Shown here piece after piece: positions 7,129 through 63,221 of a stretch of 63,221 nucleotides of DNA. The position numbers were made by a program, and so were the translations under genes. Source of the stretch: an uncultured Mycoplasmatota bacterium (GTDB lineage: Bacteria > Bacillota_I > Bacilli_A > RF39 > UBA660); contig CAMNSB010000001.1 of assembly GCA_946554325.1 (NCBI GenBank), positions 1 to 63,221 of the forward strand. Reading direction: 5' to 3'. Position 1 is the stretch's first letter. Each line of letters opens with the position of its first letter. The notes below the pieces were generated by a model. It had not been told where the DNA came from. It saw only the letters and a program-made list of their open reading frames with translations, and did no database searches.

Positions 7129-7141
7129 AATATACCTCTTT

Positions 7142-7756
7142 TCATTTATTCAATATGTTAAAAACTAAGATGAAACTGTTTAGAAAGTTAATCGTTAAAA
7201 ACCAACTGAAATGGTAGATAAATTCCCACTTTTCCTGGGATTCCTTCTTCTTTTTAAATGTTTGATAATAGTTTTTTAAATAGATTAAATTGATGATAGA
7301 AAATAGAATTACTACTTCTTTGCTATTATGATTATTTAGTATTAATAATAGAGTAGTTGTCATGGTAAGGGAGATCGTTTTTAGTAAATAAATAGGATAT
7401 TTCACGATACAAGTAATTATTTTTTTTCCATTTGCTAACAGTAAACCTAATATAAAAAAGAAAGTAGCAATACCACATTGATATAAGAATTCATGTTTTC
7501 CTAAAAAGATGAAACTGTTATATGGTTTTATTCTTTCGTAACATATTACAAAACTCTTCCATAGAGGGATAAATAGTAGTAAAAAACTGTATGTTTTATT
7601 AAGAGAATGTGTCTTTATTTTTTCTTCTTTTTTCGTTTTGAAAAATATTTCGTTTAATAAACAAAAATATTTGGTTATATATTTGGGTGTTAGTATTGTT
7701 AGAAGATAGATAATACTAAAAATACTTGTAGATAGTAGGTAGAACTTGATTGGCAT
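7142..7756 (-). CDS. Hypothetical multi-pass membrane protein
   Basis: Five to six hydrophobic segments. Lies upstream of 6421..7128 in an apparent two-gene operon. Confidence 0.5.
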   Translation of the reverse strand: MPIKFYLLSTSIFSIIYLLTILTPKYITKYFCLLNEIFFKTKKEEKIKTHSLNKTYSFLLLFIPLWKSFVICYERIKPYNSFIFLGKHEFLYQCGIATFFFILGLLLANGKKIITCIVKYPIYLLKTISLTMTTTLLLILNNHNSKEVVILFSIINLIYLKNYYQTFKKKKESQEKWEFIYHFSWFLTINFLNSFILVFNILNK

Positions 7757-7832
7757 TTTATCACCTGATTTCTTTTGGTCTTATTATAACACGTTTTATT
7801 GTTAAAATGGGGGGATAAGTTGTATATTTAAT

Positions 7833-8329
7833 ATGGTGATATTTATGATTAGGAAGAGTTTAGAAAGGTATATAGAAGAAAATGTTTTTCCAGAGTATGA
7901 GAAAAATGATGAGGGGCATGGAATAGAACATATTTGGAGTGTTGTGAGACGAAGTTTGAAATTTGCTAAGCAGGTTTCTGATATTAATGAAGAGATGGTT
8001 TATGTTATTGCAAGTTATCACGATATAGGAGTGTCTATTGATAGAAAACATCATGAAAAGGTTTCTGCTGATAGAAATACAGATGTTGACGCGGCTCTTA
8101 AAAGAACTTATACCTATCGGTTAAAGCACTTTCCTCATTTATCTTTAGATGAGATTATCGAGGACTCTAGAGGCCATTTAATAGAAAAATTTGGAGTGAA
8201 TGGTTATTCTCGTGAAAATTTTATTTTAAAGATTTAGAGTATCAAAAGTTTTTAGATGATATTGTTCATCTTACGAATGACAAAGATGCTTTTATCAAAA
8301 GATATAGGCAGGTTAATCATTTAAAATAG
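7833..8329 (+). pseudogene. HD-domain phosphohydrolase, decayed (frameshift near 8215-8235; probable internal deletion)
   Basis: HD motif SYHDIG. The frame ends ...RENFILKI*, but the next frame continues KFYFKDLEYQKFLDDIVHLTNDKDAFIKRYRQVNHLK* to 8329. Confidence 0.55.
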
Positions 8330-8385
8330 TGACAATCTTTATATCTTGATATATAATATTTTTTGATTTGAAGGAGAAATTTGAT

Positions 8386-8706
8386 ATGGATATTGTTGGG
8401 CTTGAACAAAGAAGGGTTGCTTATAGTCGTTTTGCAGATTTATGTGGTATTTTAAATGATTTCTCTTATCATAATGATAGTAAAATTACAGAAGAGTTAA
8501 AGGCTATGGTTCAACTTAATAGTCAAATTGGTATGCCTCTACCTAGTGGTAGATGGGGAAATAGTCTTGCTGTAGCACTCGAAATGTAGTATTATCAAAA
8601 TTATCCAAATGTCATACAAACTCATAATCATAATATCGATGCTTTCTTAGAGATTGCAAGTGTACTTCAAGATAAAATCAAAACAAATACGAAATCATTA
8701 TCATGA
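8386..8706 (+). pseudogene. Hypothetical small gene interrupted by an in-frame TAG at 8587-8589
   Basis: AAGGAG RBS before ATG 8386. The same frame stays open after the TAG for 38 more codons. A terminator follows only at 8707-8750. Confidence 0.35.
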
Positions 8707-8750
8707 AAATCTCAAACTATATCCTAAAATGTAGTCTGAGATTTTCTTTA
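8707..8750 (+). terminator. Intrinsic terminator
   Basis: AAATCTCA ... TGAGATTT stem followed by a T-rich tract. Confidence 0.55.
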
Positions 8751-8850
8751 TTCTTGATTTCTTTTGAAAAATATTTATCTCTTGCTTGATTAATTTTTAT
8801 ATTAATAGTATACTTTAAAATAGGAAAGAATAGGTAAAGGGGAATCTGTG

Positions 8851-10971: not shown

Positions 10972-11000
10972 GATTAGAGATTTGTTCTAATCTTTTTTTT
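10971..11000 (+). terminator. Intrinsic terminator
   Basis: AGATTAG ... CTAATCT stem followed by a T8 run. Confidence 0.75.
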
Positions 11001-11067
11001 GTTTTTCTTTTGTTCTTTGGCAATATATTATATAATATCAGTAGTGATTAGGAGAGGATGATGAAAT

Positions 11068-12375
11068 ATGTTTGAAAGTTTAGGAGATAGATTGCAGGAA
11101 GCAATTCATAAAATAAAAGGGTATGGTAAGATTACAGAAGATAATATTTCAGATATGATGAGAGAGATTCGTCTTGCTTTACTGGAAGCTGATGTAAATT
11201 ATAAAGTTGTGAAAGAGTTTACTACCCGTGTTAAAGAAAAAGCTTTGGGAGAAGAGGTAAAACGTAGTATTAATCCTGGAGATATGTTTGTTAAAATTGT
11301 AAAAGATGAGCTTGTAGAGTTATTGGGTGGAGATAGTGTTCCTCTTAATTTATCAGGAAATCCTGCTACATTAATGCTTGTTGGACTTCAGGGTAGTGGT
11401 AAGACAACGACGATTGGGAAACTTGCTAATTTACTTCGTAAAAAGCATGCTAAAAAACCGTTACTTGTTGCTTGTGATATTTATCGACCTGCAGCGATTG
11501 ATCAGTTGAAGCAGATTGGGAAACAGCTTAATATTCCTGTTTTTGAAGAGGGTAAGAAAAATCCAGTAGAAATTGTTGAACATGCTCTTAGTTATGCGAA
11601 AGAGAATGGACATGATTATGTTTTAATAGATACTGCTGGTCGTCTTCATATTGATGAGGAGTTAATGGATGAGTTAAAAGAGTTACAAGCTTTTTTAAAG
11701 CCACAAGAAGTGTTACTTGTTATTGATTCTATGATGGGACAGGATGCTATTCATGTTATAGAAGGATTTCATTCTAATTTAGCACTTACTGGTGTTATTC
11801 TTACTAAGCTTGATGGTGATACTAGAGGTGGTGTAGCACTTTCTGTTCGCCATTTAACACAGGTTCCTATTAAGTTTATTGGTACTAGTGAAAAGCTAGA
11901 TGGAATTGACTCTTTTGATCCTGAGAGGATGGCTGGTCGTATTCTTGGAATGGGAGATATTGTTTCTTTGGTAGAAAAAGCGACAGAGGCAATAGACGAG
12001 AAAGAAGCAGAAAAGACTGCTAAAAAGATGCAAAGTGGTAAGTTTGATTTGGAAGACTTTTTGTCTACTATGAAACAGATTAAGAAAATGGGTCCTCTTG
12101 AAAATTTATTAAAGTTGATTCCTGGGGCTTCTAAAATGGGGCTTAATAAAGTACAGATTGATCCAAAACAAATGGCACATGTGGAGGCGATTGTTTTATC
12201 TATGACACCTACCGAAAGACGAAATCCAAGTATTATTAAAGCAAGCCGTAAAACTAGAATTGCTGCTGGTAGTGGTACTTCTGTACAGGAAGTAAACAGA
12301 CTTCTTCAACAGTTTGATCAAATGAAAAAGATGATGAAACAAATGGCAAATGGAAATATGAAGTTTCCTTTTTAG
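11068..12375 (+). CDS. ffh: Signal recognition particle protein Ffh (SRP54)
   Basis: GLQGSGKTTT, DTAGRL and TKLDGDTRGG motifs, with a Met-rich M domain. Confidence 0.95.
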   Translation: MFESLGDRLQEAIHKIKGYGKITEDNISDMMREIRLALLEADVNYKVVKEFTTRVKEKALGEEVKRSINPGDMFVKIVKDELVELLGGDSVPLNLSGNPATLMLVGLQGSGKTTTIGKLANLLRKKHAKKPLLVACDIYRPAAIDQLKQIGKQLNIPVFEEGKKNPVEIVEHALSYAKENGHDYVLIDTAGRLHIDEELMDELKELQAFLKPQEVLLVIDSMMGQDAIHVIEGFHSNLALTGVILTKLDGDTRGGVALSVRHLTQVPIKFIGTSEKLDGIDSFDPERMAGRILGMGDIVSLVEKATEAIDEKEAEKTAKKMQSGKFDLEDFLSTMKQIKKMGPLENLLKLIPGASKMGLNKVQIDPKQMAHVEAIVLSMTPTERRNPSIIKASRKTRIAAGSGTSVQEVNRLLQQFDQMKKMMKQMANGNMKFPF

Positions 12376-12382
12376 AAAAGAT

Positions 12383-12424
12383 AGTTGTTATATATAGGCT
12401 AAACATATATGCAACTTTTTTTTT
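12383..12424 (+). terminator. Intrinsic terminator of ffh
   Basis: AGTTG-TATATAT ... ATATAT-CAACT stem followed by a T9 run. Confidence 0.75.
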
Positions 12425-12428
12425 CCTT

Positions 12429-12437
12429 CATAAGATA
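12429..12437 (+). promoter_or_regulatory. Candidate mother-cell (sigma-K/E type) -10 element CATAAGATA upstream of the cotD-like gene
   Basis: Matches the CATA---TA pattern, but no convincing -35 element lies at the usual spacing. Confidence 0.25.
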
Positions 12438-12460
12438 AAACTAGATAGGAGGAATAATAT

Positions 12461-12682
12461 ATGTTTAGACATGATCAAACGCTTTATAATGAAGCAAATA
12501 TGCAAACTGAGATTAATGGTAATAATAATACAGTAGAAAATGATATGAATATTGATATTAACATGAATAGTGGTACTGCTATGCAAAATAGTGGTTGTTG
12601 TCAAGGTCAACAACCTATTAATGAAGGTGTGAGAGAAAGATGTGTTCATAGAACTTTCGTTCATGAAGTTCCACAAGTATGA
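12461..12682 (+). CDS. cotD: 5' segment of a split CotD-family spore coat gene (ends ...RCVHRTFVHEVPQV*)
   Basis: AGGAGG RBS. The Cys/His-rich sequence aligns with the B. subtilis CotD core only when joined to 17526..17655. The stop codon is supplied by the inserted DNA. Confidence 0.7.
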   Translation: MFRHDQTLYNEANMQTEINGNNNTVENDMNIDINMNSGTAMQNSGCCQGQQPINEGVRERCVHRTFVHEVPQV

Positions 12683-12781
12683 TAATTTATGACAGACTAA
12701 GTTTTAAAGAGAGAATAAGTACAAATTTAAAGGCATTTAAATGTCTTTTTGTGTGATATAATGAAATAGAAGGTGATACTT

Positions 12782-13606
12782 ATGAATATTTTAATGATTA
12801 GTAATATAGATGCAGATGAAAAATTAGAAGATATATGGCTTGCTAGAGCTTTTCAAAAAGATGGTCATAAGGTAGCGATAGTTGATAAGAATTATGATGA
12901 AAAACTTGAATCTTTATTTGATGTTTTTTTGCTAAGGAATACTTGGGATACTGATGCGAATATAGAAACCATTAAAGAGAAATCTAATTTTCGACTAAGA
13001 ATCATTAATAAAAATCTCCCACGTATTAATTTTGATGGTAAATATGATGGAAAGAGCAAAGAATATCTTGTTCGTTTATATAAAAATGGCTATCCCGTCA
13101 TTCCAACTGTCGATAATATTGAAGATTTACAAATACTAGATAAATGTAATAAAATTTTATTAAAGCTTAAAGATAGTTATGATGGAATAGGACAAATGGT
13201 AGTAGACAAACAACAATTAGAAAAAAACTTTACTGATTCATATGTAATTCAACCATATATGGAATTTCTATCTGAGGTACAATTTTATTATATAAAAGAT
13301 AAATTCGAATATGCACTAGAGTTTATTCCAAGTAAAGTTCCAATTTATCCCGATGCAATAAAATATGAACCAAATGAAAATGAAATGAAATTAGCAGATG
13401 AATTTTCTAAATTAAATGAAAATTATTATGGTATTCAAAGAATTGACTTTATTAAACTTAAGGATGGAACACTTCTTTTGACAGAGATTGAAGATATAGC
13501 TCCCTATTTAGATTTAGATTGTGTTGAAGAAAAAATAAAAAATAAATTTATTTTGGATTATAAAAATATGGTATATGAGTATATGAAAAATATAAATAAT
13601 GATTAG
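12782..13606 (+). CDS. ATP-grasp-like protein (hypothetical)
   Basis: C-terminal ...GIQRIDFIKLKDGTLLLTEIEDIAPYL resembles the ATP-grasp Mg/ATP-binding strand. The ATG at 12782 follows a GAAGGTG RBS. Confidence 0.45.
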   Translation: MNILMISNIDADEKLEDIWLARAFQKDGHKVAIVDKNYDEKLESLFDVFLLRNTWDTDANIETIKEKSNFRLRIINKNLPRINFDGKYDGKSKEYLVRLYKNGYPVIPTVDNIEDLQILDKCNKILLKLKDSYDGIGQMVVDKQQLEKNFTDSYVIQPYMEFLSEVQFYYIKDKFEYALEFIPSKVPIYPDAIKYEPNENEMKLADEFSKLNENYYGIQRIDFIKLKDGTLLLTEIEDIAPYLDLDCVEEKIKNKFILDYKNMVYEYMKNINND

Positions 13607-15669: not shown

Positions 15670-15718
15670 GTAATACTAAATATATGTGTAATTTAAATAT
15701 TATACAATTTAGTATTAC
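15670..15718. repeat. Perfect 12-bp inverted repeat (GTAATACTAAAT ... ATTTAGTATTAC) with a 25-nt spacer, upstream of the small ORF and recombinase
   Basis: Read directly from the sequence. Confidence 0.85.
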
Positions 15719-15765
15719 TAAAACTAGTGATTTATCCATAAGTTTAAGTGAGGTGCTTAAAATAT

Positions 15766-15942
15766 ATGGATAAGTACAAAATTAATTATATCTATAATAA
15801 AAATAATGATATAAATGATGTTTTTATAAAAGTTTTAAATAAGGAACTTAAAAAATATATCCAAATGATTTGTAAAAATGAAAATTGTGAGGTACCATCA
15901 TCATGTACTTATTTATCTCAAGAAAGGAGAAAAAGTTGTTAG
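15766..15942 (+). CDS. Small hypothetical protein overlapping the recombinase start (possible accessory or directionality factor)
   Basis: GAGGTG RBS before ATG 15766. 58 aa. No recognised motif. Confidence 0.3.
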   Translation: MDKYKINYIYNKNNDINDVFIKVLNKELKKYIQMICKNENCEVPSSCTYLSQERRKSC

Positions 15943-17498
15943 AGAGTTTAAATAAGATATATAATGTTGGACTTTATATAAGATTATCTAGGGAAGATGA
16001 TGATAAAACTTTAGAAAGTGAGAGTATTACAAATCAAAAGAGCTTATTACTTCAATATGTTAAAGAAAATAATTTAAGAGTATATGATATTTATATTGAT
16101 GATGGATATAGTGGAACAAATTTTGAAAGACCTGATTTTAATAGATTATTAACTGATATTGAATTAGGTAAAATAAATATGGTTATTACTAAGGATATGT
16201 CAAGACTTGGAAGAGATTATATTGGTACTGGTAATTTAATCGAAAAGTATTTTCCAGAACATAATGTTAGATATATAGCTGTTACTGATAATATAGATAC
16301 ATTTTTAGATAATTCTAATAATGACATTGCACCATTTAAAGCTATTATGAATGACATGTATGCTAAAGATATATCTAAAAAAATAAAATCTAGTTTAAAA
16401 GCAAAAATGAAAGAAGGAAAATGGGTTGGAGGAAGAACTCCGTTTGGATATGATCAAGATAAAGATAATAAAAATCATTTAGTAATAAATCCAGAACAAG
16501 CAATTGTTGTTAAAAGAATATTTGATATGTGTTTAGAAGGTTTATCATTCTTTAAAATAGCCAAACAACTTACAAATGAAGGAATAAAAACCCCAGCACA
16601 ATACTATAACTTTGAATGGAAAAATAACTACAATTTAAAATATGGAGAGTGGCATTCAAAAACCATAAGAGATATTTTAACTAATAGAATGTATATTGGT
16701 GATATGGTACAAAATAGAAGAAGTAAAGTTAATTATAAAGTGAAAAAAGTGATTAAAAATAATCCCAATGATTATATAGTTGTAGAAAATACTCATGAAG
16801 CAATTATAGATAAAGGAATATTTTATGAAGTTCAAAAAAGAATGCCTAAAAATAAGGGGCGAAATGAAAAAAAAGAGATTCATTTATTAGATGGGTTATT
16901 ATATTGTGGTAATTGTGGACATCGAATATCCATACAATCCAGAAGAAAAAAAGATAATAGATGTTATACAATTTGCAATTATTATAGGACTTATATGAAA
17001 CAAAAACTTTGTACAACTCATTCTAATAACTATGATGAATTAGAGAAAGTTATAATCAATTCATTAACTAATATCTGCTTAAATTATATTAATAAAGATA
17101 AAATTAAAAATAATGTATTAAATAATTTAACTGAAGATAATAAATTAAATAATAAAAAAGAGTTAGAAAGACTAACTAACGACATTAAGCAAATAAATGA
17201 TAATTTAGATATTATTTATATTGACAAGTTAAATAATAAAATAACTGAAGAACAATTTGAAAGGGTAAAAGTTAAGTTAGAAAATGAACTAAATATAAAA
17301 CAAAAAAGATATAATGAATTAAATAATAGTATTAATGATAATATTAATGAAGAATCTAAAAATAAAATGATTGTGAAATATATTAATAAGTTTTTATCTA
17401 TGAAAGAACCAAGTAGAGAATTAATAATTAATTTAATTGAAAGAATTGAAATATTTGAAGATAAAACTATAAATATAAAAGTTAGTTTTAGCAAATAA
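15936..17498 (+). CDS. Large serine recombinase (resolvase catalytic domain + recombinase domain + zinc ribbon + coiled coil)
   Basis: YIRLSREDDD...SITNQ catalytic region and CGNCGH...C..CNYY zinc ribbon. The TTG at 15936 follows an AAGGAG RBS; the ATG at 15903 is an alternative start. Confidence 0.9.
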   Translation: MLESLNKIYNVGLYIRLSREDDDKTLESESITNQKSLLLQYVKENNLRVYDIYIDDGYSGTNFERPDFNRLLTDIELGKINMVITKDMSRLGRDYIGTGNLIEKYFPEHNVRYIAVTDNIDTFLDNSNNDIAPFKAIMNDMYAKDISKKIKSSLKAKMKEGKWVGGRTPFGYDQDKDNKNHLVINPEQAIVVKRIFDMCLEGLSFFKIAKQLTNEGIKTPAQYYNFEWKNNYNLKYGEWHSKTIRDILTNRMYIGDMVQNRRSKVNYKVKKVIKNNPNDYIVVENTHEAIIDKGIFYEVQKRMPKNKGRNEKKEIHLLDGLLYCGNCGHRISIQSRRKKDNRCYTICNYYRTYMKQKLCTTHSNNYDELEKVIINSLTNICLNYINKDKIKNNVLNNLTEDNKLNNKKELERLTNDIKQINDNLDIIYIDKLNNKITEEQFERVKVKLENELNIKQKRYNELNNSINDNINEESKNKMIVKYINKFLSMKEPSRELIINLIERIEIFEDKTINIKVSFSK

Positions 17499-52585: not shown

Positions 52586-52906
52586 ATGTATCATTATTTG
52601 AAAGATTATATTCAAAAAATAGATGATTTCTTGGACAGTAGTTATAAAATAGAACCAGTTATTGTAGAACAGCATTTGGTTAAAATTCATTTTTTTCAGC
52701 ATGAAAGACAGATTCATCTCTATGTTACTATTGCTTATGCTTTGTTTTTATTAATCAGTATATTTTTTGCATTTTTACATCCTTTTTTGTTTATCATTTC
52801 TATTATTTTAATTTGTTTTTTAATTCCTTATGTTATTCATTATTTTCATTTGGAAAATGGGGTGCAATATTTATACAAACAGTATGATAAAATGATAGAA
52901 AAATGA
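52586..52906 (+). CDS. Small membrane protein
   Basis: Two TM helices. Follows scpB. Confidence 0.5.
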   Translation: MYHYLKDYIQKIDDFLDSSYKIEPVIVEQHLVKIHFFQHERQIHLYVTIAYALFLLISIFFAFLHPFLFIISIILICFLIPYVIHYFHLENGVQYLYKQYDKMIEK

Positions 52907-52991
52907 TTTAAGACATTTCACAAATGATAAAATTTTAATTATTTTCTATCGCATATTTAGTAAAGGTGTGTTATACTTTTACTTGTAGATT

Positions 52992-53030
52992 GCCTGCGTG
53001 GTGGAATGGTAGACGCGTTGGACTCAAAAA
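52992..53030 (+). pseudogene. tRNA-Leu(CAA) 5' half only (acceptor strand, D arm, 5' anticodon stem and loop); the 3' half is missing
   Basis: GCCTGCG-TG-GTGGAATGGTAGACGC-G-TTGGA-CTCAAAA. The next bases are ACCGA instead of TCCAA, and no T arm or acceptor 3' strand follows. An extended -10 TGtTATACT lies at 52969-52977. Confidence 0.7.
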
Positions 53031-53291
53031 CCGACGTGCTTGATTCAAAATCTGTCTTAATTAAAATCGTATAAAAGTTAGTAAATACAAGGGATTGTTG
53101 TTATATTGACATTCTCTTTTTTGTTGCTTAGAAGTTGTTTATGTGGGGAATTAGGTGGGATTGTTTCAAAGATATTCATACTTAATTAAGTTAATTCAAA
53201 AATGCTTTGAATAGTTGAAATAGTATTAGTATCCTTAATCAAATATCAATTAGCTATTTCTCTCATTATAATATGAAAGGAGAACTTAGAT

Positions 53292-53615
53292 ATGAATTTA
53301 TACGAAGCAGTAAGCAAAAACATCAAAGCAAATAATGATTTGGTAGAGAACTTAGAACAAATGAAGAAGGAATATGAGGTATATATAACCAAACAAAAAG
53401 AATTATATCTACAGATTATTGATGTATGTCCTGAATTTAAAGAGGAAGATAATAATGACTTAGATTTTTTGGGATACTTATTTAAAAATATTTATCTTTA
53501 TAGTGTTGAACCAATTACTCCATTAAATGTCTTTCTTATTTCAAAGGGATATAAGGACAAAACTGATGACTTTGATAAATTAGTCGAACTACTTATTAGT
53601 TATCTAACTATTTAA
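53292..53615 (+). CDS. Hypothetical protein
   Basis: AAAGGAG RBS. No motif recognised. Confidence 0.45.
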   Translation: MNLYEAVSKNIKANNDLVENLEQMKKEYEVYITKQKELYLQIIDVCPEFKEEDNNDLDFLGYLFKNIYLYSVEPITPLNVFLISKGYKDKTDDFDKLVELLISYLTI

Positions 53616-53718
53616 TCATTATTCAATGTGCTATCGGCACATTTTTTTTGGAACTTTTGCGAATGGGATTGTAATTAACGAAAATCTGTTTTACATATAA
53701 AATGGAGGTAGTTAATTT

Positions 53719-54333
53719 ATGACAAAAGAAAACAAAGACATTGATGATTTAGGACAACAAGTAAAGGTTGTTTATGAAGAAGATATACCTAAAATGGTAA
53801 AAGTATTAAGTAATGGAGTATGGTTAGAACAAGTTCCCCCACTATTTATTGAATTATTAAGTAGTAGTAAAAGAAGAACTATTGAAACAATTAAATATGC
53901 ACCAAATATCTATTTCCAACTAAAACAAGAGTTTCAAATCGATAAACAAATTATAAAATCAACTATTCGATCATTTGAACATCATAATAAAATTGATGAA
54001 ATAATTACAGGTGCAATTCCACTTATAAGAAGAACCGATTTTACTATTGAAGAAAGAAATATTGATATTGAAGATTATTATAAAAGAAATTATATTAAGC
54101 ATTATGCGAACCTTATTGTAGATAATATTGCAACCACTTATTATGCATTCGGTAATAATCACAATATGACATATAGTGAAATATTCTCATCATCAGAAGA
54201 TTCCTTCTATCTTACAGAAGAAGAAAATAACATCATAAATAAGTTAGTCAATGATAAATTGAGAGGTAAATACAAATTGAAGATTACTTCAAAAGATAGT
54301 GATAGCATTTTACAACTTCAAAAGGTTAAATGA
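53719..54333 (+). CDS. Hypothetical protein
   Basis: GGAGG RBS. No motif recognised. Confidence 0.45.
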   Translation: MTKENKDIDDLGQQVKVVYEEDIPKMVKVLSNGVWLEQVPPLFIELLSSSKRRTIETIKYAPNIYFQLKQEFQIDKQIIKSTIRSFEHHNKIDEIITGAIPLIRRTDFTIEERNIDIEDYYKRNYIKHYANLIVDNIATTYYAFGNNHNMTYSEIFSSSEDSFYLTEEENNIINKLVNDKLRGKYKLKITSKDSDSILQLQKVK

Positions 54334-54512
54334 GCAATGCTAAAACTACATTATCAAAAGAAATTTTGTTTTTTGGCCTAAACAGGGTTGTAATCATATT
54401 TTTTATATGGTACATTAGTTTCAGTAGTCTACTGGTAGGCTATATTACCAGCATTTCAGCACAGAATAATCAACTTATGTACGAGAGGATAACTCATGAA
54501 AAAGCATTATAA
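54330..54512 (+). CDS. Small membrane protein
   Basis: ATGA overlap with the upstream gene. One to two TM helices. Confidence 0.4.
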   Translation: MSNAKTTLSKEILFFGLNRVVIIFFIWYISFSSLLVGYITSISAQNNQLMYERITHEKAL

Positions 54513-55060
54513 AGAAGAAATCAAAGAAAACTAATAACACGAAGCAAAAAATTAAAAGAAAGAGAAATAACACTACTAAAATTAAAACAAAGAAGAAGAA
54601 AACTAAGAGAAAGAAAAGTAAGAAGAGCAGAGATTTATTAAATTATTAAATTAAACTAGTTAGAAAGGTAAAACTACTAGTACCAATCAAAGATGTTTGA
54701 GAAAGTAAAGACTACAATCCTCATACACAGGTATAAGAAACACGAGTCGGTGTAATCCTTATTCCGAATTGGTAGAATCGACCATATATTTACAATTAAA
54801 TAGTAACAAGGAGTCAGTACAGTTTATTAGTACTTCCTCCTGTTATAGTAGATACACAATTATATCCTCTATCCTTTAATGGTACGAGGATATTTTATAT
54901 ACCCATTAACTAATTAAAATATCATAGTTTGATAAATGGTTCACACTTTGTAAAAGTTAATTAGTTGTGTGGTTTATACTACTTATCCATTTAAGACCTC
55001 ACAATTGGTCTAAAATTGGTTAATAACTTGGTAATCTTTAAAAGATACATTTACAATTTT

Positions 55061-55405
55061 ATGAAAGGACTTATTCCAATGAAATCATGGTTTATACAAT
55101 TTGAAAATAAGATAAACAAAACAAGAATGACAATTTATAACAATGGTATAGTTTATGGAACAGAACGAAATGAGAAACTCTTTATTCTCTCTTCCACTTG
55201 TATAGAACAACTAAAAGATATTATCAATGAGAATATGTATATGTTTAAAACATTAGAATATCAAAACGAAGGACGTTCTCCTATAGTATTAAGAGTAAAT
55301 GATACTAGTAGGAAACATAGAAACATTAAAATTGTTGGTTGGAGTCAAACGGAAAGACTTCTAAACATAATTATGGATGAAAACAATCATATTAAGAACT
55401 TTTAA
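55061..55405 (+). CDS. Hypothetical protein
   Basis: Start ambiguous (ATG at 55061 or 55079). No motif recognised. Confidence 0.4.
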   Translation: MKGLIPMKSWFIQFENKINKTRMTIYNNGIVYGTERNEKLFILSSTCIEQLKDIINENMYMFKTLEYQNEGRSPIVLRVNDTSRKHRNIKIVGWSQTERLLNIIMDENNHIKNF

Positions 55406-55532
55406 TTAGGGTCTTGTATCTAATTTCAGATTGTGGTTATCTATAATTAGCAATCGTTTTTCCAAACAAAAAAGAAATATATAATACTATATAACATAGA
55501 TACTTTATGTTTATATAATAAGATATATTTCT

Positions 55533-55913
55533 CTACTTATGATCCATTAAACCCTTTACATATGCTTCTACTAATTTCTGTTTATCCTTAGGTAAAGAAG
55601 AAATGTTATTTATTAGTATGCTTAATTCAGAATCCTTACTCAATGAATTAAGTTTTTCTATTGGTAAAGGATTATCAGTTCTACCCAAAAGAAAATCTAT
55701 ATTACAATTTAAGAAATTGGCTATTGATACAAGGTTCGTAACACTAGGAAGCTTATTTCCATTTATGTAAGAATTGATGGATGAATCACTTATACAGGCG
55801 TTCATTGCTAATTTAGTTACCGAGTAATCTTTGGAGTCAATTAACTTCTTCATGTTACTCATGTTTATAGTCTCTCTTACTGCATCATAATGTTCTGTAT
55901 TATTGATAATCAC
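55533..55913 (-). CDS. XRE/cI-like HTH repressor
   Basis: YSVTKLAMNACISDSSINSYINGNKLPSVTNLVSIANFLNCNIDFLLGRTD. The GTG start follows a GAGGTG RBS. Divergent from 56021..58438. Confidence 0.8.
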   Translation of the reverse strand: MIINNTEHYDAVRETINMSNMKKLIDSKDYSVTKLAMNACISDSSINSYINGNKLPSVTNLVSIANFLNCNIDFLLGRTDNPLPIEKLNSLSKDSELSILINNISSLPKDKQKLVEAYVKGLMDHK

Positions 55914-56020
55914 TTATATCACCTCAATATAATTTTAACAACTAGAAAGCAAAATAAATTGCACTGGAGGTATTGTCTAAACTACTTCAAGTATGATATT
56001 ATTAACTTGAGGTGGTAGCG

Positions 56021-56827
56021 ATGAAAATACAAATGTATAGTCCTATCAAAGAAGAAGCAGGCGTTATAATGGCTTTTTCCAAGTTGCATGAGGAGTTAGG
56101 ATTTCCTAAACTTGTTCCTTCCTCTGCACGAGGCTTTGATATTGACGATATTGAGTACAAAGGTAAAAGAGTAACAGTCGAGTTTGAGTATCTATCAGAA
56201 AACTTTATTAGTCATGGTCATATAGAACAAATGAAAGATGGGAGAAATTATGTCTTAGTTTGTTATGAAGACAATTGTAGTATTCTACAGAAATTACGAG
56301 AGATTTATAATAAGACTAACCTAGAAGTAATTGAGTTAAAGAACTATATTGAAATAAAACCAGATATTATTTCAGATGATGAAGATTCAATAGAATACAT
56401 TGTACTAAACTATAATCCATATATGGCAGGACTTCCTATTGATTCTTGGAAATCAGCTAACGTATATGGTATCAATGCACAATTTTCAAACAATCATATT
56501 ACCGCTGGTAGTAAGATCTTATTTAAGCAAGGAGACTTTATTGTTGCTAGATGTGAAGTAGTAAAATATGAAACCTACGAAACTCCACAAAACGATAACG
56601 AATGGCGATTACTTCAAAATTTATATAACTATCCTTTAGGTTTATATAATTTAACATTAGAGGAAGTAAAAGAAAATATGGCACATGGTTATATATTCTA
56701 TGACTCCTTTACTACATTTGATGAAAGAAAGGTCTCATTTAGTAAAGCATTACCAAACAGAAATATGGGACATCAAGGTATGATAAAAATAACAAGAGAA
56801 GACTATTATAAGTTGATGGGGTATTAG
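56021..56827 (+). CDS. Hypothetical two-domain protein: N-terminal PD-(D/E)xK-like nuclease fold + C-terminal PUA-like (EVE/ASCH-like) domain
   Basis: GFDIDD...KRVTVEFEYLSENFISHGH...VLVCYEDN resembles a restriction-endonuclease-like core. IVLNYNP...KQGDFIVARCEVV resembles PUA-like domains. By-eye inference only. Confidence 0.4.
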   Translation: MKIQMYSPIKEEAGVIMAFSKLHEELGFPKLVPSSARGFDIDDIEYKGKRVTVEFEYLSENFISHGHIEQMKDGRNYVLVCYEDNCSILQKLREIYNKTNLEVIELKNYIEIKPDIISDDEDSIEYIVLNYNPYMAGLPIDSWKSANVYGINAQFSNNHITAGSKILFKQGDFIVARCEVVKYETYETPQNDNEWRLLQNLYNYPLGLYNLTLEEVKENMAHGYIFYDSFTTFDERKVSFSKALPNRNMGHQGMIKITREDYYKLMGY

Positions 56828-56829
56828 AT

Positions 56830-58047
56830 ATGAAGAAGAAAAAGGTAGTGTTGATAGTAGGATTTGTCATACTAGGAGTACTCGTTCTAAGTTTAAGTGG
56901 ATATATTGTCTACGATAAACTATTATCGAAAAACGTAGGAACTATAAGCAAGAAAACAAGTAATTATAATATCGATGATTATATAACAGTTAAAGATTTT
57001 AATTATTATACTAATGTAGATGGTCAAGTTAAAAAATTGGAATTTAAAAACTTACCAGCTACTCTAACATCAGAGTTCTATAATAAGCACAGTGAATTTA
57101 CAAATAAAATGTCTGGATCTGCTGAATATTCAAACACCAATTTATCTAATGAGATTTTCTATGATATATCAGGTAATGTATTATCTGTATATGAACTAGA
57201 TGAATCATATCTTATAGAATATCCTTATGGCGAAGAACAAGGCCCAATGGATTATACAACATATGATTTTTATAGCATAAATATCAATTTGGATGAGCAA
57301 AAAATAATAACGAATCAGGAATTATTGGAGATGTATAAAATAAATCCTTCCGATGTATTCGAGAAGATTTTAAATGATATAGCAGACTTACATAAAGATG
57401 ATGGCCTTCTAATCCCTACTGAAAGTCAAGCGTTTGATAATATGTCCAGTAAAGAGTTCAAGAAAAATATAAATAAATATATAAAACAGATTAACAATAG
57501 ATTTGATAAAATCGTATTGTATGTTAGAAATAATAATGTTTATGTTGCTTACGATGAAGAAGATATAGTCAGGCTTATTGGCTTAGAGGCTCAAACACGT
57601 TATGCAGCAGTTGAATCCGATATAGAAACCCATGTCTTATCTCTTGGTAATATAGAATATGATAAATCAAAAGAAAAAGCTAATATAGAGAATAATCCAA
57701 ATTATGAGTATGATCCTTATAATGCAAATGACTCAATCTTAAATAAATTTCTAGTTGCTCCGATGGTAGAATGTCCTAATAAAACTTTAGGAGAAACCAT
57801 TAAGGAATTTAATACATACGAAAATTTATCAGCAATTTATAAAATGACTAAAATACAAGATAGAGATTATCTTAAATTAAAAACGATAGGACCTAGTGAT
57901 ACTATGATTGCTATAGTTAGTTTAGATGAAGATGGAAAGGCATTTATAGCAGAAGCGGAAGCAGAATCTATTAAAAGGAATCTTAGTGATCCTGATGAGA
58001 TTTCTTTATACTCAGTTTTAGCAGGAACTGAAATGTTATGTAATTAG
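56830..58047 (+). CDS. Hypothetical membrane-anchored extracytoplasmic protein
   Basis: N-terminal TM helix. 405 aa. No motif recognised. Confidence 0.5.
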   Translation: MKKKKVVLIVGFVILGVLVLSLSGYIVYDKLLSKNVGTISKKTSNYNIDDYITVKDFNYYTNVDGQVKKLEFKNLPATLTSEFYNKHSEFTNKMSGSAEYSNTNLSNEIFYDISGNVLSVYELDESYLIEYPYGEEQGPMDYTTYDFYSININLDEQKIITNQELLEMYKINPSDVFEKILNDIADLHKDDGLLIPTESQAFDNMSSKEFKKNINKYIKQINNRFDKIVLYVRNNNVYVAYDEEDIVRLIGLEAQTRYAAVESDIETHVLSLGNIEYDKSKEKANIENNPNYEYDPYNANDSILNKFLVAPMVECPNKTLGETIKEFNTYENLSAIYKMTKIQDRDYLKLKTIGPSDTMIAIVSLDEDGKAFIAEAEAESIKRNLSDPDEISLYSVLAGTEMLCN

Positions 58048-58063
58048 TTAAAGGAGAGGTAAA

Positions 58064-58438
58064 ATGAAGAAGTTATTTGTATGTATATGTTTAGGTTTAA
58101 TGATTATTGGAGTTACAGGATGCAGTGATGATGAACAATCAAGCGAAAGTGGAACTTCTAAACAAATATCAGGTTGTTTTATTCCAGAAGAAGGAGCAAG
58201 CAGTTATAATACACGTAAAGTTACTAAAATGTGTATATCTGGAGATAATGTTACTTTATATGTAAATGGAGCGAGTGATGAATTTTATGCTCAGCATCTT
58301 CCAAATCAAAATCCTAAAATGGTATATATAGCAAATCAATATACTGATTTGTTTGCTTGCAAAGAAGTTAGGGATTCAAACAATATAATATGTAAAATAG
58401 CAGATGATGCATCATATGTTGAGTGGATAAAACAGTAA
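58064..58438 (+). CDS. Small lipoprotein
   Basis: Lipobox IGVTGC. Confidence 0.65.
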   Translation: MKKLFVCICLGLMIIGVTGCSDDEQSSESGTSKQISGCFIPEEGASSYNTRKVTKMCISGDNVTLYVNGASDEFYAQHLPNQNPKMVYIANQYTDLFACKEVRDSNNIICKIADDASYVEWIKQ

Positions 58439-58650
58439 ACTTAAAGAATTAGATTGACTTGCTTAATGCAAGTTTTTCTTTTGCTCTAAAATCTCCCACT
58501 ATCACGTAATAAATGTCTAGTAGTTGTCAGTATTCAAAAGAAATTTGTTTATTATTGGTATTTTTTGTCATTATATCTTGTAATTAAATTTATTTGTGTC
58601 AGACTTCAAAGTACGAACTTTTGTTTATGTTCGTGTTTGGAGGTGAAACT

Positions 58651-59073
58651 ATGAAATGGATTTATGATGACGGAGGAAGAAGTAAGTATTTCAAAGGTAC
58701 AACAGAAGATTGTGTATGTCGTGCAATCGCAATAGCAACAGGTAAAGATTACAAAGAAGTTTATGATATGATAAACGATTACATTAAACAAGAACAGCTT
58801 GATGATATGTATGTTGAAAATGCACGTACTGGAGTCAGTAAAGAGATATGTACTAAACTTTTGGAGTCATTAGGTTGGAAATGGCATGCGTGCATGATAT
58901 TCGGAAAGGGCTGCACCACTCATCTAAAAAGTGGAGAGTTACCCAAAAAAGGGACTTTGATTGTCTCTGTATCAAAGCATCTTACTTGTGTCAAAGATAA
59001 TATTATTTATGATACCTTTGATCCAAGTCGTAATGGAACAAGATGTGTTTATGGCTATTATGCAAAAGCATAA
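58651..59073 (+). CDS. Hypothetical protein typical of mobile elements (MKWIYDDGGRSKYFKG...CVCRAIAIATGKDY)
   Basis: GGAGGTG RBS before ATG 58651. Confidence 0.5.
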   Translation: MKWIYDDGGRSKYFKGTTEDCVCRAIAIATGKDYKEVYDMINDYIKQEQLDDMYVENARTGVSKEICTKLLESLGWKWHACMIFGKGCTTHLKSGELPKKGTLIVSVSKHLTCVKDNIIYDTFDPSRNGTRCVYGYYAKA

Positions 59074-59091
59074 ATTGGAGGTGTTGAAGAA

Positions 59092-59271
59092 ATGCTAAAA
59101 CAGATATGTCCTAAATGCAATAAGGAATATACCAGTCGCCCTGCTATTTCTCGTATTGATAATAAAACAAGAATATGTCCTGCTTGTGGAGTAATTGAAG
59201 CGATAGAAAATATAATTGAAAGTAATAAAAGAAGTAAAAGAAAGAAGAAATTGGTTAGGTTGGTGCATTAG
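59092..59271 (+). CDS. Small zinc-ribbon protein (59 aa; CPKC...CPAC); absent from the ORF track
   Basis: GGAGGTG RBS. The stop abuts the next start. Confidence 0.5.
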   Translation: MLKQICPKCNKEYTSRPAISRIDNKTRICPACGVIEAIENIIESNKRSKRKKKLVRLVH

Positions 59272-59637
59272 ATGGATGAAGGTATTACAAGACTTAACAA
59301 AATGTTTGAAGGACAACAAGATATAGCATTAACCAAAGTTGTGAATCATTTAAAGGAACTAAAAGATATTGACACTACTATATTCTTAAATGATGAAAAG
59401 GATCTAAAAGGTATGTGTGATTATGTAAAATCAAGGGCTAAAGAGTTTGCAGTAAATAATGTAGCAATGATAATTGATGAAACAGTTTATGGATGGAGTT
59501 TAAATTATTGGCAGTTATCCAATGAAGAGTTAGGAATTAAAAAGGAAGAACCAAAACCAATTATTCCTAAACCTAGTAATGTTGTAACAAAACAAGTAGA
59601 AGAAACACCACCGAGAGCACAATTAACTTTATTCTAA
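59272..59637 (+). CDS. PcfK-like protein
   Basis: Pattern K..C.YV...A......V..IIDETVYGWSLNYW, followed by a PcfJ-like gene. Recalled family resemblance only. Confidence 0.45.
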   Translation: MDEGITRLNKMFEGQQDIALTKVVNHLKELKDIDTTIFLNDEKDLKGMCDYVKSRAKEFAVNNVAMIIDETVYGWSLNYWQLSNEELGIKKEEPKPIIPKPSNVVTKQVEETPPRAQLTLF

Positions 59638-59638
59638 A

Positions 59639-61075
59639 ATGGCTTATATGAATAAGCAGTTACAACATTATGTGGAATTGTCAGACACACACTCCGTTCC
59701 TACTTCATTTGAAAAGTTTATCAATAAACATAAAGCGATAGAAAACATAATCCTAAAAAAGGGACAGACTTGTTACTGTACACATTGTAGTCATGAATTT
59801 ACTTCTAATGCTAAAATAAATAAAGAAACAAGGTGTCCCTACTGTAAGTACAAGTATTTAGTTAGAAGATTCACATTAAAAAACTATGAAACCAAGAAAG
59901 ACTTGATACTACTAGATAAAGTGGAAGATAAATTTATATTAAGAGTATTCGAACTATATTCCAAGTATAACCCACAGTTCAAAGATTTTGATTATTCATG
60001 TACCGAGTATCGAAGAGTATTCTTTGATGACAATAGTTACAACCAAGTTGTTGAGGGAGATAATGTATTTCACACAATGGGATTATCAGTAGTTTGGCAC
60101 TTCAAGAAAAGAAGTTGTTGGAAGAAGAAAGAATGGTCTTGGTACTACAGAAGTTATGGTGATACGATTGGTTACATTTGTCCCTACAATATCAAACAAT
60201 TATTAAAAGGAACAAAATATCAATACACGCAGTTATGGAAGTTAGTATCGAGAATTGAACCCTTTAATTTAGTTGAATTATTCCAAAAGTGTCTTAATGA
60301 CTACTCTAATACATTTGAACTATTAGTAAAAGCAAAACTTTATCATTTAGCTTTAGTAAGTAATCGTTTCGGTAGTACAAAGAAATCATTTGAAGAAAGG
60401 TTTGGAGTTCCTAAGTCTTTCCTTCCGTTTATGCAAAAGCACAATATTACTTATGATGAGCTTGATGTACTAAGGTGTTGTAAAACTCCAAATATACGAT
60501 TATTACGTGCATTAAAGGGGTGTCATAACCTACTGTGGTTATCTTATCGTATTGACTTTCTAATGGCATGGAGATGTGGTTTACTATCTCAAAGAACGGA
60601 ACATGAATATAAGGATTATTTAACCTTTGCTATTCAATTAGGATATGATATGAAAGATAAAACTATACTCTATCCTAGCAATTTAAGGCAAGCACACGAT
60701 AAATTAGAAAACTTAGTCGAAATATGTCGAAACGAAGCAAACTCCAGATTATTAAAGGAAAGATATGAGCAGTTAAAACACAATATATACAAAACTAAGA
60801 AGTTTATAATCTATCCAGCAAGTTCTAGTGATGAGTTAATCAACGAAAGTTTTCAACAATGCAATTGTACTAAATCATACATTGAAAAAGCAGCGTTATC
60901 AGAATGTGATTTATACTTTATGCGATTAGTAAGTAATCCAACAAAATCACTCGTTACTGTTGAGGTTAGGAATAATCAAGTAGTACAAGCAAAAATCAAA
61001 CATAATCAAGAACCAACTAAGGAGCAATGGAGATTCCTAAATAGTTGGAGTAAAAACATTCTTATTAAAAATTAG
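59639..61075 (+). CDS. PcfJ-like protein with an N-terminal zinc ribbon
   Basis: CYCTHC...CPYC motifs, the size, and the position after the PcfK-like gene. Confidence 0.45.
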   Translation: MAYMNKQLQHYVELSDTHSVPTSFEKFINKHKAIENIILKKGQTCYCTHCSHEFTSNAKINKETRCPYCKYKYLVRRFTLKNYETKKDLILLDKVEDKFILRVFELYSKYNPQFKDFDYSCTEYRRVFFDDNSYNQVVEGDNVFHTMGLSVVWHFKKRSCWKKKEWSWYYRSYGDTIGYICPYNIKQLLKGTKYQYTQLWKLVSRIEPFNLVELFQKCLNDYSNTFELLVKAKLYHLALVSNRFGSTKKSFEERFGVPKSFLPFMQKHNITYDELDVLRCCKTPNIRLLRALKGCHNLLWLSYRIDFLMAWRCGLLSQRTEHEYKDYLTFAIQLGYDMKDKTILYPSNLRQAHDKLENLVEICRNEANSRLLKERYEQLKHNIYKTKKFIIYPASSSDELINESFQQCNCTKSYIEKAALSECDLYFMRLVSNPTKSLVTVEVRNNQVVQAKIKHNQEPTKEQWRFLNSWSKNILIKN

Positions 61076-61096
61076 TTAAAATTCAGGGAGGTAAAG

Positions 61097-61777
61097 ATGA
61101 ATGAATTAAATATATACGATAGATGGAATTATAAGTATAGACTATTATATTGTCTTATGCTTAACTACTATCGCAATCATTATGCAGATAATAAATTTAA
61201 AGGGAAAATCCTAGTATTATGTACTAGTAAAAAGAGGTTAATGGATGAATATGATAAATTATATTCTACAATTAGATATTTTACAGTTGAAGATGTAAAA
61301 ACGTTATATGGCTTTATAGGACGTCATGATAAAGAGTTAAAACAATTGTTTGAAGATTTAGAGGAACATAATATTTATTTTGATTCTCTTATTCAAGGTA
61401 TTAAGAAAGAATATATATCGGAAAGAGCAACCTACAAAGAATGTATTTATGGGGATGTAGAGCATTTTCCAAGTGGAAAGAATATTACATTTATAAACTT
61501 TGAAGATGTAGATTTAATTTATGACAAACATTTAGTTAGAGAGATGTTTATCCCAGAACATTTTAATATTCGTAGACATCCAGATAGTAATTGCAATGAA
61601 TTATGTAATATCTTAACAAAATATACTAGAGAAATTACTAAAGCAAAAGCTATTTTAAAATCTAATAATGCATTAGAAACAGAATACCTATCATTAAATG
61701 TATTTATCAATGGTGAAGATGGACTGGCATTTATAGATGAAGTTAATAATCGACTAACTATGTATGATGGTGAATAA
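61097..61777 (+). CDS. Hypothetical protein
   Basis: GGGAGG RBS. Confidence 0.45.
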   Translation: MNELNIYDRWNYKYRLLYCLMLNYYRNHYADNKFKGKILVLCTSKKRLMDEYDKLYSTIRYFTVEDVKTLYGFIGRHDKELKQLFEDLEEHNIYFDSLIQGIKKEYISERATYKECIYGDVEHFPSGKNITFINFEDVDLIYDKHLVREMFIPEHFNIRRHPDSNCNELCNILTKYTREITKAKAILKSNNALETEYLSLNVFINGEDGLAFIDEVNNRLTMYDGE

Positions 61778-62052
61778 TGAAGTTCAATTTAGGAAGTTTA
61801 GTAATGACTGTAGGTATTGATGATGCAATACATCAAGATAAAAACTACTTAACAGAATTATTAAATTGTTTAAGGAAGTACATTAAATGTGATTGGGGAG
61901 ATTTAGGCGAATACGATAAAAGAGCTAATGATATAGCTATTAAAAATGGCGATAGGATATTTGCTTCTTATAAAACATCAAAAGGAAAAGTCTACGTTAT
62001 TACAGAATGGGATAGATCTTGCACTACACTACTATTTGCTAATGAATATTAA
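61777..62052 (+). CDS. Plasmid-related small protein (..CDWGDLGEYDKRANDIAIKNGDRIFASY...VITEWDRSCTTLLFANEY)
   Basis: Conserved GDWGDL...ND.A...RI...Y...ITE.DRS.TT.L...EY pattern seen on conjugative elements. Confidence 0.55.
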   Translation: MKFNLGSLVMTVGIDDAIHQDKNYLTELLNCLRKYIKCDWGDLGEYDKRANDIAIKNGDRIFASYKTSKGKVYVITEWDRSCTTLLFANEY

Positions 62053-62065
62053 AGGGAGGTTAAAC

Positions 62066-62272
62066 ATGATACAATTAGAAGATTTGATTAACAGGTTTAT
62101 AAAGAATGAGTTAGAGATTGGAGTTTCATTTTCTAGTAACGCTAATAATGAAAATGTGATTGTTACTGTTAATGACTCTTCTTTAGACATTGCAACCTGT
62201 CAAAAGAATAATTGGATAAGGCACAATGTATATTATCGAGATGGTTCCCGTGAAGAATATTATGATAGATAG
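62066..62272 (+). CDS. Small hypothetical protein
   Basis: GGGAGG RBS before ATG 62066. The longer track ORF from 61946 overlaps the previous gene. Confidence 0.45.
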   Translation: MIQLEDLINRFIKNELEIGVSFSSNANNENVIVTVNDSSLDIATCQKNNWIRHNVYYRDGSREEYYDR

Positions 62273-62423
62273 CATTGGTGTTATAAGGTGGTTCAAGTGT
62301 GGTTATTTTGTTTCTAGGTTGATGTTATATTGTCAATTCAATTAAAAACGTCTCACAATCGTTTAAAAGTGGTGAATTATATTACCACTTCTCTTTTAGA
62401 GCATATGGTTCAAAGAATCAATT

Positions 62424-62529
62424 GTTACTTTGGGTATAATAATCTCATACAAAATTACAGATAAAATGGCCTTAAAGTGATGATTTTAGGTCTAAAAGGT
62501 TCAACTTACTAAAATTAGGTTACTTTGGG
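62424..62529. repeat. 11-bp direct repeat GTTACTTTGGG (62424-62434 and 62519-62529) upstream of the resolvase gene
   Basis: Read directly. GGTTCAA also occurs three times (62290, 62407, 62498). Confidence 0.7.
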
Positions 62530-62550
62530 CATATAGAAGGAAGGTATAAA

Positions 62551-63153
62551 ATGGCTAAATACTCTTACCAAAGAGCAAGTACAAATAAAGATAAACAAAG
62601 TTTGTTAAGACAAGAAAAGTTTGCGATAGATCATGAAGTTCCAAAATGCAATTGGTATCAAGAATATGCAAGTGGAGCAAAAACAGATAGACTAAAATTA
62701 CAACAATTACTCTCTTTATTAAAGGAGGGAGATGAATTATATGTGATTGAAGCATCACGATTGACAAGAAGTCTAAAACAATTACTTGATATATTAGATT
62801 TTGTAAAGGAAAAGAAAATCAAGTTAGTTATGGGAGACTTTAGTTTTGATGTAACAGCGAAGATGTCTCCTTTCCTACAGGGGCAGTTAATGTTTCTAGG
62901 AATGATGAACGAAATCAACAGACTTATTATTGTTTCTAATGTTCAAGAAGGAGTTGACGCAGCACGAGAAGAAGGTCGTATTGGAGGACAACCAAGACTA
63001 ACAAAGGAACGACTTTATGAGAAAAATCCAGACTTCTTCAAGTATTATGCACAATACAAGAATAAGCAAATAACACTTAAAGAGTTAGGTTTACTATCGC
63101 AGGTATGTAAAAATACAGTCTATAATTATATTAAGGTAATAGAAAGTAGATAA
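62551..63153 (+). CDS. Small serine recombinase (resolvase/invertase type, C-terminal HTH)
   Basis: N-terminal YSYQRASTNKDKQSLLRQ catalytic region and C-terminal LKELGLLSQVCKNTVYNYI HTH. 200 aa. Confidence 0.8.
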   Translation: MAKYSYQRASTNKDKQSLLRQEKFAIDHEVPKCNWYQEYASGAKTDRLKLQQLLSLLKEGDELYVIEASRLTRSLKQLLDILDFVKEKKIKLVMGDFSFDVTAKMSPFLQGQLMFLGMMNEINRLIIVSNVQEGVDAAREEGRIGGQPRLTKERLYEKNPDFFKYYAQYKNKQITLKELGLLSQVCKNTVYNYIKVIESR

Positions 63154-63176
63154 ATAGAACCAATCAATGATATGAA

Positions 63177-63209
63177 CCCCGTTTCTTGGACATAGGAAAC
63201 GAGGTTTTT
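63177..63209 (+). terminator. Intrinsic terminator after the resolvase gene
   Basis: CCCCGTTTC ... GAAACGAGG stem (one mismatch) followed by TTTTT. Confidence 0.6.
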
Positions 63210-63221
63210 ATATGAGTAAAT

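Follow-up and report, generated by a model that had tools for sequence, protein, structure and literature searches.

A tRNA-Leu(CAA) gene split in its anticodon loop very probably marks the left end of a 15.2-kb tyrosine-integrase island with a replacement tRNA

The split tRNA gene and its neighbourhood

The window analysed here is a stretch of 63,221 nucleotides that forms the entire contig C1 in the assembly of an uncultured Mycoplasmatota bacterium (1.4 Mb in 92 contigs, 30% G+C, 94.6% complete). Downstream of scpA-scpB, it contains the 5′ half of a tRNA-Leu(CAA) gene (Table 1), comprising the acceptor 5′ strand, the D arm, the 5′ strand of the anticodon stem and the 7-nt loop. The extended −10 promoter that precedes it went unlisted in a generic consensus scan because its −35 is weak. 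These 38 nt are 100% identical to the beginning of the intact 86-nt tRNA-Leu(CAA) gene in two genomes of the same genus (G004 and G002), which excludes a chance resemblance and shows that they are indeed half of a gene. The promoter block is also found upstream of the intact gene in these two genomes and of the split gene in L055, a contig from another sample. Right after the loop comes ACCGACGTG, where the intact gene needs TCCAA, and from position 53030 on the sequence (ACCGACGTGCTTGATTCAAAATC...) is foreign and unlike a tRNA. The initial annotation had reported this arrangement (a promoter, a tRNA-Leu 5′ half, a non-complementary ACCGA after the loop and, a little further on, a second anticodon-loop-like string), and the locus reads as it described, the second string being GATTCAAAATC.

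The complete tRNA that would have argued against a broken gene was found by neither program used, since ARAGORN called no tRNA in the window and Rfam detected none at the gathering score and none at E ≤ 10 within 52800-53300. The variable arm, T arm and 3′ acceptor strand are absent from the window and from the whole assembly, where the missing 3′ half was sought by regular expression and by blastn-short and gave no match. The 28 tRNAs of the assembly include Leu(UAA) (on contig C69) and Leu(GAG), and none is Leu(CAA).

In G004, the intact tRNA-Leu(CAA) gene likewise lies downstream of scpA-scpB, with 82% identity to the window over 1316 nt, and this syntenic locus therefore serves as the empty site with which the initial annotation had proposed to compare the break. 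The spacing between scpB and the tRNA is just 76 nt in G004; in the window, a 106-aa hydrophobic ORF (52586-52906) that has no G004 counterpart lies between scpB and the tRNA promoter. In G002 (L014, around 9067-10107), the identical tRNA-Leu(CAA) gene and promoter have other upstream genes, without scpAB, and the left flank of this gene has thus been rearranged within the genus.

Table 1. Coordinates of the features at the locus and of related features elsewhere (positions in the window unless a contig is named)
Feature	Position	Strand	Remark
Extended −10 promoter TGTGTTATACT	52967-52977	+	14 nt upstream of tRNA nt 1; read from the sequence
tRNA-Leu(CAA) nt 1-38, GCCTGCGTGGTGGAATGGTAGACGCGTTGGACTCAAAA	52992-53029	+	Host arm of the probable attL
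CTCAAAA, 7-nt anticodon loop	53023-53029	+	Presumed common core (overlap/crossover region) of the att sites
Island left 10.1 kb	53030-63167	+	Pfam and PHROGs; orphan ORFs plus the genes listed below
Island left arm (P′)	53030-53170	+	Conserved among island variants in six other genomes
ACCGACGTG, candidate core-type site	53030-53038	+	Imperfect inverted copy of CGCGTTGG of the tRNA
GATTCAAAATC, TTCAAAA core-like repeat	53042-53052	+	Left arm
GTGGGGA/GTGGGAT pair, candidate arm-type sites	53143-53149, 53155-53161	+	Left arm
XRE repressor gene	55533-55913	−	Pfam/PHROGs
PcfK-like gene	59272-59637		Pfam/PHROGs
PcfJ-like gene	59639-61075		Pfam/PHROGs
Small resolvase gene (200 aa)	62551-63153		Pfam/PHROGs
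Edge of multi-copy, IS-like repeat TGATATGAACCCCGTTTCTTGGACATAGGAAACGAGGTTTTTATATGAGTAAAT	63168-63221	+	Interrupts the island relative to L055; contig end
Island-borne tRNA-Leu(CAA), complete, 88 nt	L055 15402-15489		Between integrase gene and attR
tRNA-adjacent serine-recombinase loci, own genome	C29 14505-16137; C4 c38666-34339, c25026-23182; C77 c3290-839; C7 1642-3143; C21 c16962-14411
tRNA-adjacent serine-recombinase loci, other	L013 (G004) 6783-13147; L055 15687-20603

Complete copies of the island in other assemblies

What lies to the right of the break became clear from a look-up of the window's resolvase protein, which led to 21 contigs from other samples. L055 and L056 are 99.9% identical to the window from 52944 to 63167 (10,224 nt), with an identical tRNA 5′ half, L060 is 100% identical to the window's island over 9,156 nt, and the copies in L055-L060 overall are 97-100% identical to it. 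After the resolvase gene, L055 and L056 encode in order a DnaB-like helicase, a RecA-like ATPase, an 89-aa ORF, an Xis-like HTH_17 protein, a 393-aa tyrosine integrase and a tRNA-Leu(CAA). The integrase, which has Phage_int_SAM_3 and Phage_integrase domains, is encoded just before the island tRNA and attR throughout L055-L060. Downstream of the island tRNA, L055 has a right arm of ~200 nt, a second core at 15687 and then the host 3′ half (attR reads CTCAAAA/TCCAATGGTAGCAATACCGTGTCGGTTCAAGTCCGACCGCAGGCACCA), which begins TCCAATGG and ends GCACCA. The two cores are 15,214 bp apart, i.e. the island is 15.2 kb long, and the 5′ half in the window joined to the 3′ half in L055 gives the G004 tRNA letter for letter. 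The initial annotation had counted the absence of a matching 3′ half from the genome as evidence against a split gene, and had proposed to look for it downstream so as to define the far end of the island. This MAG indeed lacks it, very probably owing to an assembly gap at a multi-copy repeat, and the exact half is found 15.2 kb downstream in the sibling contigs.

More distant relatives have the same architecture. In G322, a single contig contains attL, about 18 kb of DNA, a tyrosine integrase gene (PF00589, Phage_integrase, 2.8e-25; PF14659, Phage_int_SAM_3, 9e-17; phrog_1, 8e-77), a complete tRNA-Leu(CAA) preceded by a promoter, a right arm of ~300 nt and finally CTCAAAA with the host 3′ half, and G224 and G321 display this layout spread over two contigs each. 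Joining the flanks in these three genomes gives tRNA-Leu(CAA) genes that are valid for ARAGORN. In L055, L056, G322, G224 and G321, attL and attR share only CTCAAAA, the adjoining bases being different (A/T on the left, A/T on the right). Every examined copy that includes the integrase-proximal end (G322, G224, G321 and L055-L060) has an island tRNA-Leu(CAA), and in L050 Rfam calls just the neighbouring tRNA-Arg and the island tRNA. No attP (…CCACGTTTCTCAAAAACCGACGTG…) or circular form was seen, metagenome scans for the attR of the species itself and for the G321-type right arm gave no match, and neither did a scan of viral contigs for the island left arm.

The arms of the island contain candidate protein-binding sites. 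Pairs of GTGGGRA occur in both arms (the right arm being seen in the complete copies), and a TTCAAAA string lies 12-14 nt from the core in each of them, an arrangement that a lambda-type heterobivalent integrase would use if it does bind these sites. Pfam and PHROGs gave no match to capsid, tail, terminase or lysis families in the window part of the island or in G322, and there are no such families among the precomputed Pfam hits for the L055 genes. The element, many of whose ORFs are orphans, therefore appears to be an island or possibly a satellite, and not a phage. No terminator is predicted between the tRNA half and the co-oriented left-hand island genes. The strong host promoter of the split gene could conceivably act as an integration-dependent promoter for these genes, or as the source of a tRNA-half leader RNA, by which the island would sense its integrated state in a manner reminiscent of the integration-dependent immunity of mycobacteriophages, a speculation that we regard as unlikely.

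Recurrence and spread of the junction

One genome per species (185,579 species) was scanned for a pattern consisting of the D arm, N4, GACTCAAAA and NCCGACG. Three of the nine loci found are ordinary tRNAs with a stem that fits the pattern, and the remaining six are split genes whose 5′ halves are all different (GCTTTTG.., GCCGGCC.., GCTCTTG.., GCCAGTC.., GCCTGCG.. and GCCTGTG..) and are followed by homologous island arms, two of which are identical to that of the window. In G224, which belongs to another genus, a different tRNA-Leu(CAA) 5′ half ending with CTCAAAA is followed by the homologous arm GCCGACGCG... At least six other MAG species, whose tRNA sequences all differ, have the junction (5′ half up to CTCAAAA, then NCCGACG...), and recurrence of such precision with different tRNAs rules out random decay and chimeric assembly. 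The 'decay of an old attL' that the initial annotation had entertained must therefore be abandoned. Its description of a tRNA-Leu(CAA) gene that is interrupted at the 3′ border of the anticodon loop, beside a mobile island and without the tRNA being restored there, is borne out. It had not anticipated a replacement tRNA carried by the island. Used as a DNA query across the family, the left end of the island mostly returned AT-rich noise, with one real match (G224).

The island in the window is 96-99.8% identical to that on contig C10 of G321, where the host flanks are merely 71-75% identical and the tRNA differs, which indicates recent horizontal spread. In L057, the island is 98.8% identical to the window part and the 3′ half of the host tRNA-Leu(CAA) (~15687-15760) starts with TGCTG instead of TCCAA. 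The integrase would thus accept different anticodon stems, with the loop as the constant part, and the conserved target appears to be the anticodon loop. A different anticodon stem was considered as the means by which the island tRNA avoids being targeted itself, and was rejected, since the stem of the window-type island tRNA (ATAGA/TCTAT) is that of the targeted host tRNA in G224; integration in L057 into a host tRNA with a TGCTG stem also speaks against it.

In G321, G224 and G322, there are only two TAGACGC..CTCAAAA sites each, the split host copy and the island copy, and the latter is therefore the sole intact tRNA-Leu(CAA) gene in these assemblies. UUG represents 9.6% of the Leu codons in the genome of the window. 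Whether another tRNA-Leu covers this codon had been raised in the initial annotation; tRNA-Leu(UAA), which the assembly contains, might do so by wobble, in which case the replacement tRNA would not be strictly needed.

A model for integration into the anticodon loop

The feature in the window is, very probably, the attL of a 15.2-kb integrative island that encodes a tyrosine integrase, splits the tRNA-Leu(CAA) gene and carries a replacement for it. In the proposed mechanism, the lambda-type tyrosine integrase of the island would recombine attP with the host tRNA-Leu(CAA) gene, using the 7-nt anticodon loop CTCAAAA as overlap region. The attP would share just these 7 nt with the gene and, identity being limited to the loop, the tRNA is rebuilt at neither junction: attL retains the promoter and nt 1-38, and attR, 15.2 kb away, CTCAAAA and nt 39-86. 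The island tRNA-Leu(CAA), which lies between the integrase gene and attR and has its own promoter, would presumably be expressed and replace the lost function, and precise excision would restore the host gene.

The right part of the island in this genome

Identity between the window and L055 stops at 63167, where a multi-copy repeat begins. The last 41-55 nt of the contig are common to the ends of contigs C56 and C13, where they lie beside unrelated chromosomal genes. The repeat probably belongs to an IS-like element that has landed in the island directly behind the resolvase gene and whose body is outside the bin. Since the contig ends at such a repeat, the assembly presumably broke there and the remainder was left unbinned. 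The integrase gene, island tRNA, attR and tRNA 3′ half are all absent from this MAG, in which the best integrase match is 27% identical, and the full picture of the element in this genome is thus drawn from other assemblies. We infer that the island of this MAG still has its right part, unassembled beyond the repeat.

It could be argued instead that the island is a fixed remnant in this genome, from which the right part (integrase, island tRNA and attR) was deleted together with nt 39-80 of the tRNA, UUG being read by the tRNA-Leu(UAA) that exists on C69. This would account for the lack of the 3′ half, of tRNA-Leu(CAA) and of any close integrase homologue in a 94.6%-complete assembly, and for contig C21, where only GCACCA, the final 6 nt of the tRNA, stands before the DNA that in G004 follows the tRNA. 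The junction in C21 (…CTTACTC/GCACCATTGAGG) was accordingly considered as the right end of the island with a 42-nt deletion. This reading was rejected because an identical GCACCA remnant lies between tandem serine-recombinase elements in G004, and because C21 begins with 600 nt that are paralogous to cargo of a C4 element and 87% identical to the serine-recombinase element that follows attR in L055; the junction is therefore the boundary between stacked large-serine-recombinase elements. Moreover, the contig stops exactly where the multi-copy repeat starts, which is typical of an assembly break, and complete copies match the left 10.1 kb of the island at 99.9-100% identity, which indicates that the island arrived recently. 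A fixed remnant is thus improbable.

Which recombinase inserted the island?

The initial annotation had preferred a serine recombinase, with a 2-bp crossover and no duplication, as the agent of integration. The island does encode a 200-aa resolvase, and large serine recombinases are abundant in the genome, including one downstream of this tRNA locus. However, the resolvase has no Recombinase or zinc-ribbon integration domains, and the large serine recombinase modules sit at the CCA end of tRNAs, away from the anticodon loop. The 99.9% identical complete copies are instead bounded by CTCAAAA at both ends, a 7-bp direct repeat with the size of a tyrosine-recombinase overlap region, they have a tyrosine integrase gene and an Xis-like HTH_17 gene beside attR at the far end, and both arms contain paired repeats resembling arm-type sites. 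Insertion by a serine recombinase is, on this evidence, very improbable, and a tyrosine integrase remains by far the better candidate.

Two further scenarios have next to no chance of being correct. An assembly chimera wrongly joining a tRNA half to the island might be suspected in a short-read MAG with many repeats, but the identical junction is found in independent assemblies of other samples (L055 from ENA and L056 from Logan) and homologous junctions in six other species genomes. A functional split tRNA whose halves are united in trans, as known from Nanoarchaeum, or a giant intron within the tRNA gene, would be in keeping with the persistence of both halves in lysogens and of the promoter of the 5′ half, but there is no 12-14-nt complementarity across the arms neighbouring the two halves (at most 5 complementary nt), the insert is a 15-kb stretch of protein-coding genes, one of them for an integrase, Rfam yields no intron family and the cut after position 38 is at no known intron site.

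Serine-recombinase elements behind tRNA genes

At six tRNA genes of this genome (Gly-GCC, Thr-GGT, Arg-CCT, Leu-GAG, Cys-GCA and the Leu-CAA locus), a hairpin, an orphan ORF of ~100 aa and a gene for a large serine recombinase with Resolvase and Recombinase domains are found within about 100-250 nt downstream. These elements stack in tandem, separated by GCACCA, i.e. the last 6 nt of tRNA-Leu. The elements behind tRNA-Arg(CCT) on C4 and behind tRNA-Leu(CAA) in L055 are 89% identical over 4.3 kb and both start ...CACCA/TTGGGAAATCTGTTC, which suggests serine-integrase elements that would use the encoded ...CACCA terminus of tRNA genes as attB. The literature was searched for large serine recombinases with tRNA 3′ ends as targets, and no relevant paper was found. 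In L059 (14901-15025), the CCA of the island tRNA is followed by …CACCA/TATAGATAGGAAACTCGAACTTTTCGAG instead of the usual right arm; this resembles the left end of serine-recombinase elements, one of which may have landed behind the island's own tRNA. The window itself contains a 531-aa ORF (15903-17498) with about 30% identity to the large serine recombinase of C21, which may be the recombinase behind a remark on cotD in the initial annotation, where the break in the tRNA was likened to a serine-recombinase crossover at that gene. The tRNA-Leu(CAA) gene of this lineage would thus be a two-level docking site, whose loop takes the tyrosine-integrase island and whose CCA end takes stacked serine-recombinase elements.

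Comparison with known systems

In classical Islander-type elements (PMC4383910), attP holds the 3′ part of the tRNA, and the gene is restored at one junction upon integration, with a displaced fragment left at the other. The island described here differs in that both of its junctions hold just half a gene, and its attP would share the loop alone. Phage HP1 integrates in tRNA-Leu, where the crossover falls within the 7-nt anticodon loop and the symmetric stem lies on either side. A tyrosine integrase and an anticodon-loop crossover are thus common to classical tRNA integration and to the island. With the skin/SPbeta type of large-serine-recombinase elements, the island has in common that the target gene is split as long as the element is resident, but these elements use a 2-bp crossover and a large serine recombinase and bring no replacement gene, whereas the island has a 7-bp core, a tyrosine integrase and a replacement tRNA. 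The layout of the island has practical consequences. Island finders that expect a regenerated tRNA and a displaced fragment will miss such islands, and in the output of tRNA scanners the host gene will be lacking, with the result that tRNA complements of MAGs, and what is inferred from them about codon reading, can err.

The closest parallel is the tRNA-dependent lysogeny of actinobacteriophages (Fionnbharth/Subcluster K4, Cluster L and others), in which a tyrosine integrase uses an attB inside a host tRNA gene, no tRNA is rebuilt and the element carries a cognate tRNA on which the survival of its carrier cells depends (Guerrero-Bustamante and Hatfull, mBio 2024, PMC10865867). The island shares with these phages a tyrosine integrase gene beside the att site (L055-L060 and G322), an attB in a tRNA gene and an element-borne tRNA. 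The common core is about 10 bp in the phages and 7 bp here, neither system rebuilding a functional tRNA, and putative arm-type sites flank the attP core there (PMC10865867) as candidate arm sites do in the island. In contrast to these temperate phages, the island has no detected virion genes, its host belongs to an uncultured, small-genome gut lineage of Bacilli in a different phylum, and its target is tRNA-Leu(CAA) with a core that is exactly the anticodon loop; the cells that carry it may or may not depend on the island tRNA. As a possible case outside Actinobacteria, the Discussion of the same article names prophage Lj965 of Lactobacillus johnsonii (PMC10865867). By that description, it resembles the island in being a Bacillota element with a tRNA that is not rebuilt at the junction and a cognate tRNA of its own, and differs from it in being a prophage. 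The island thus matches a tRNA-dependent integration design already known since 2024 from some actinobacterial phages, and extends it to a horizontally spreading, apparently non-phage family of islands in gut Bacilli with minimal tRNA sets.
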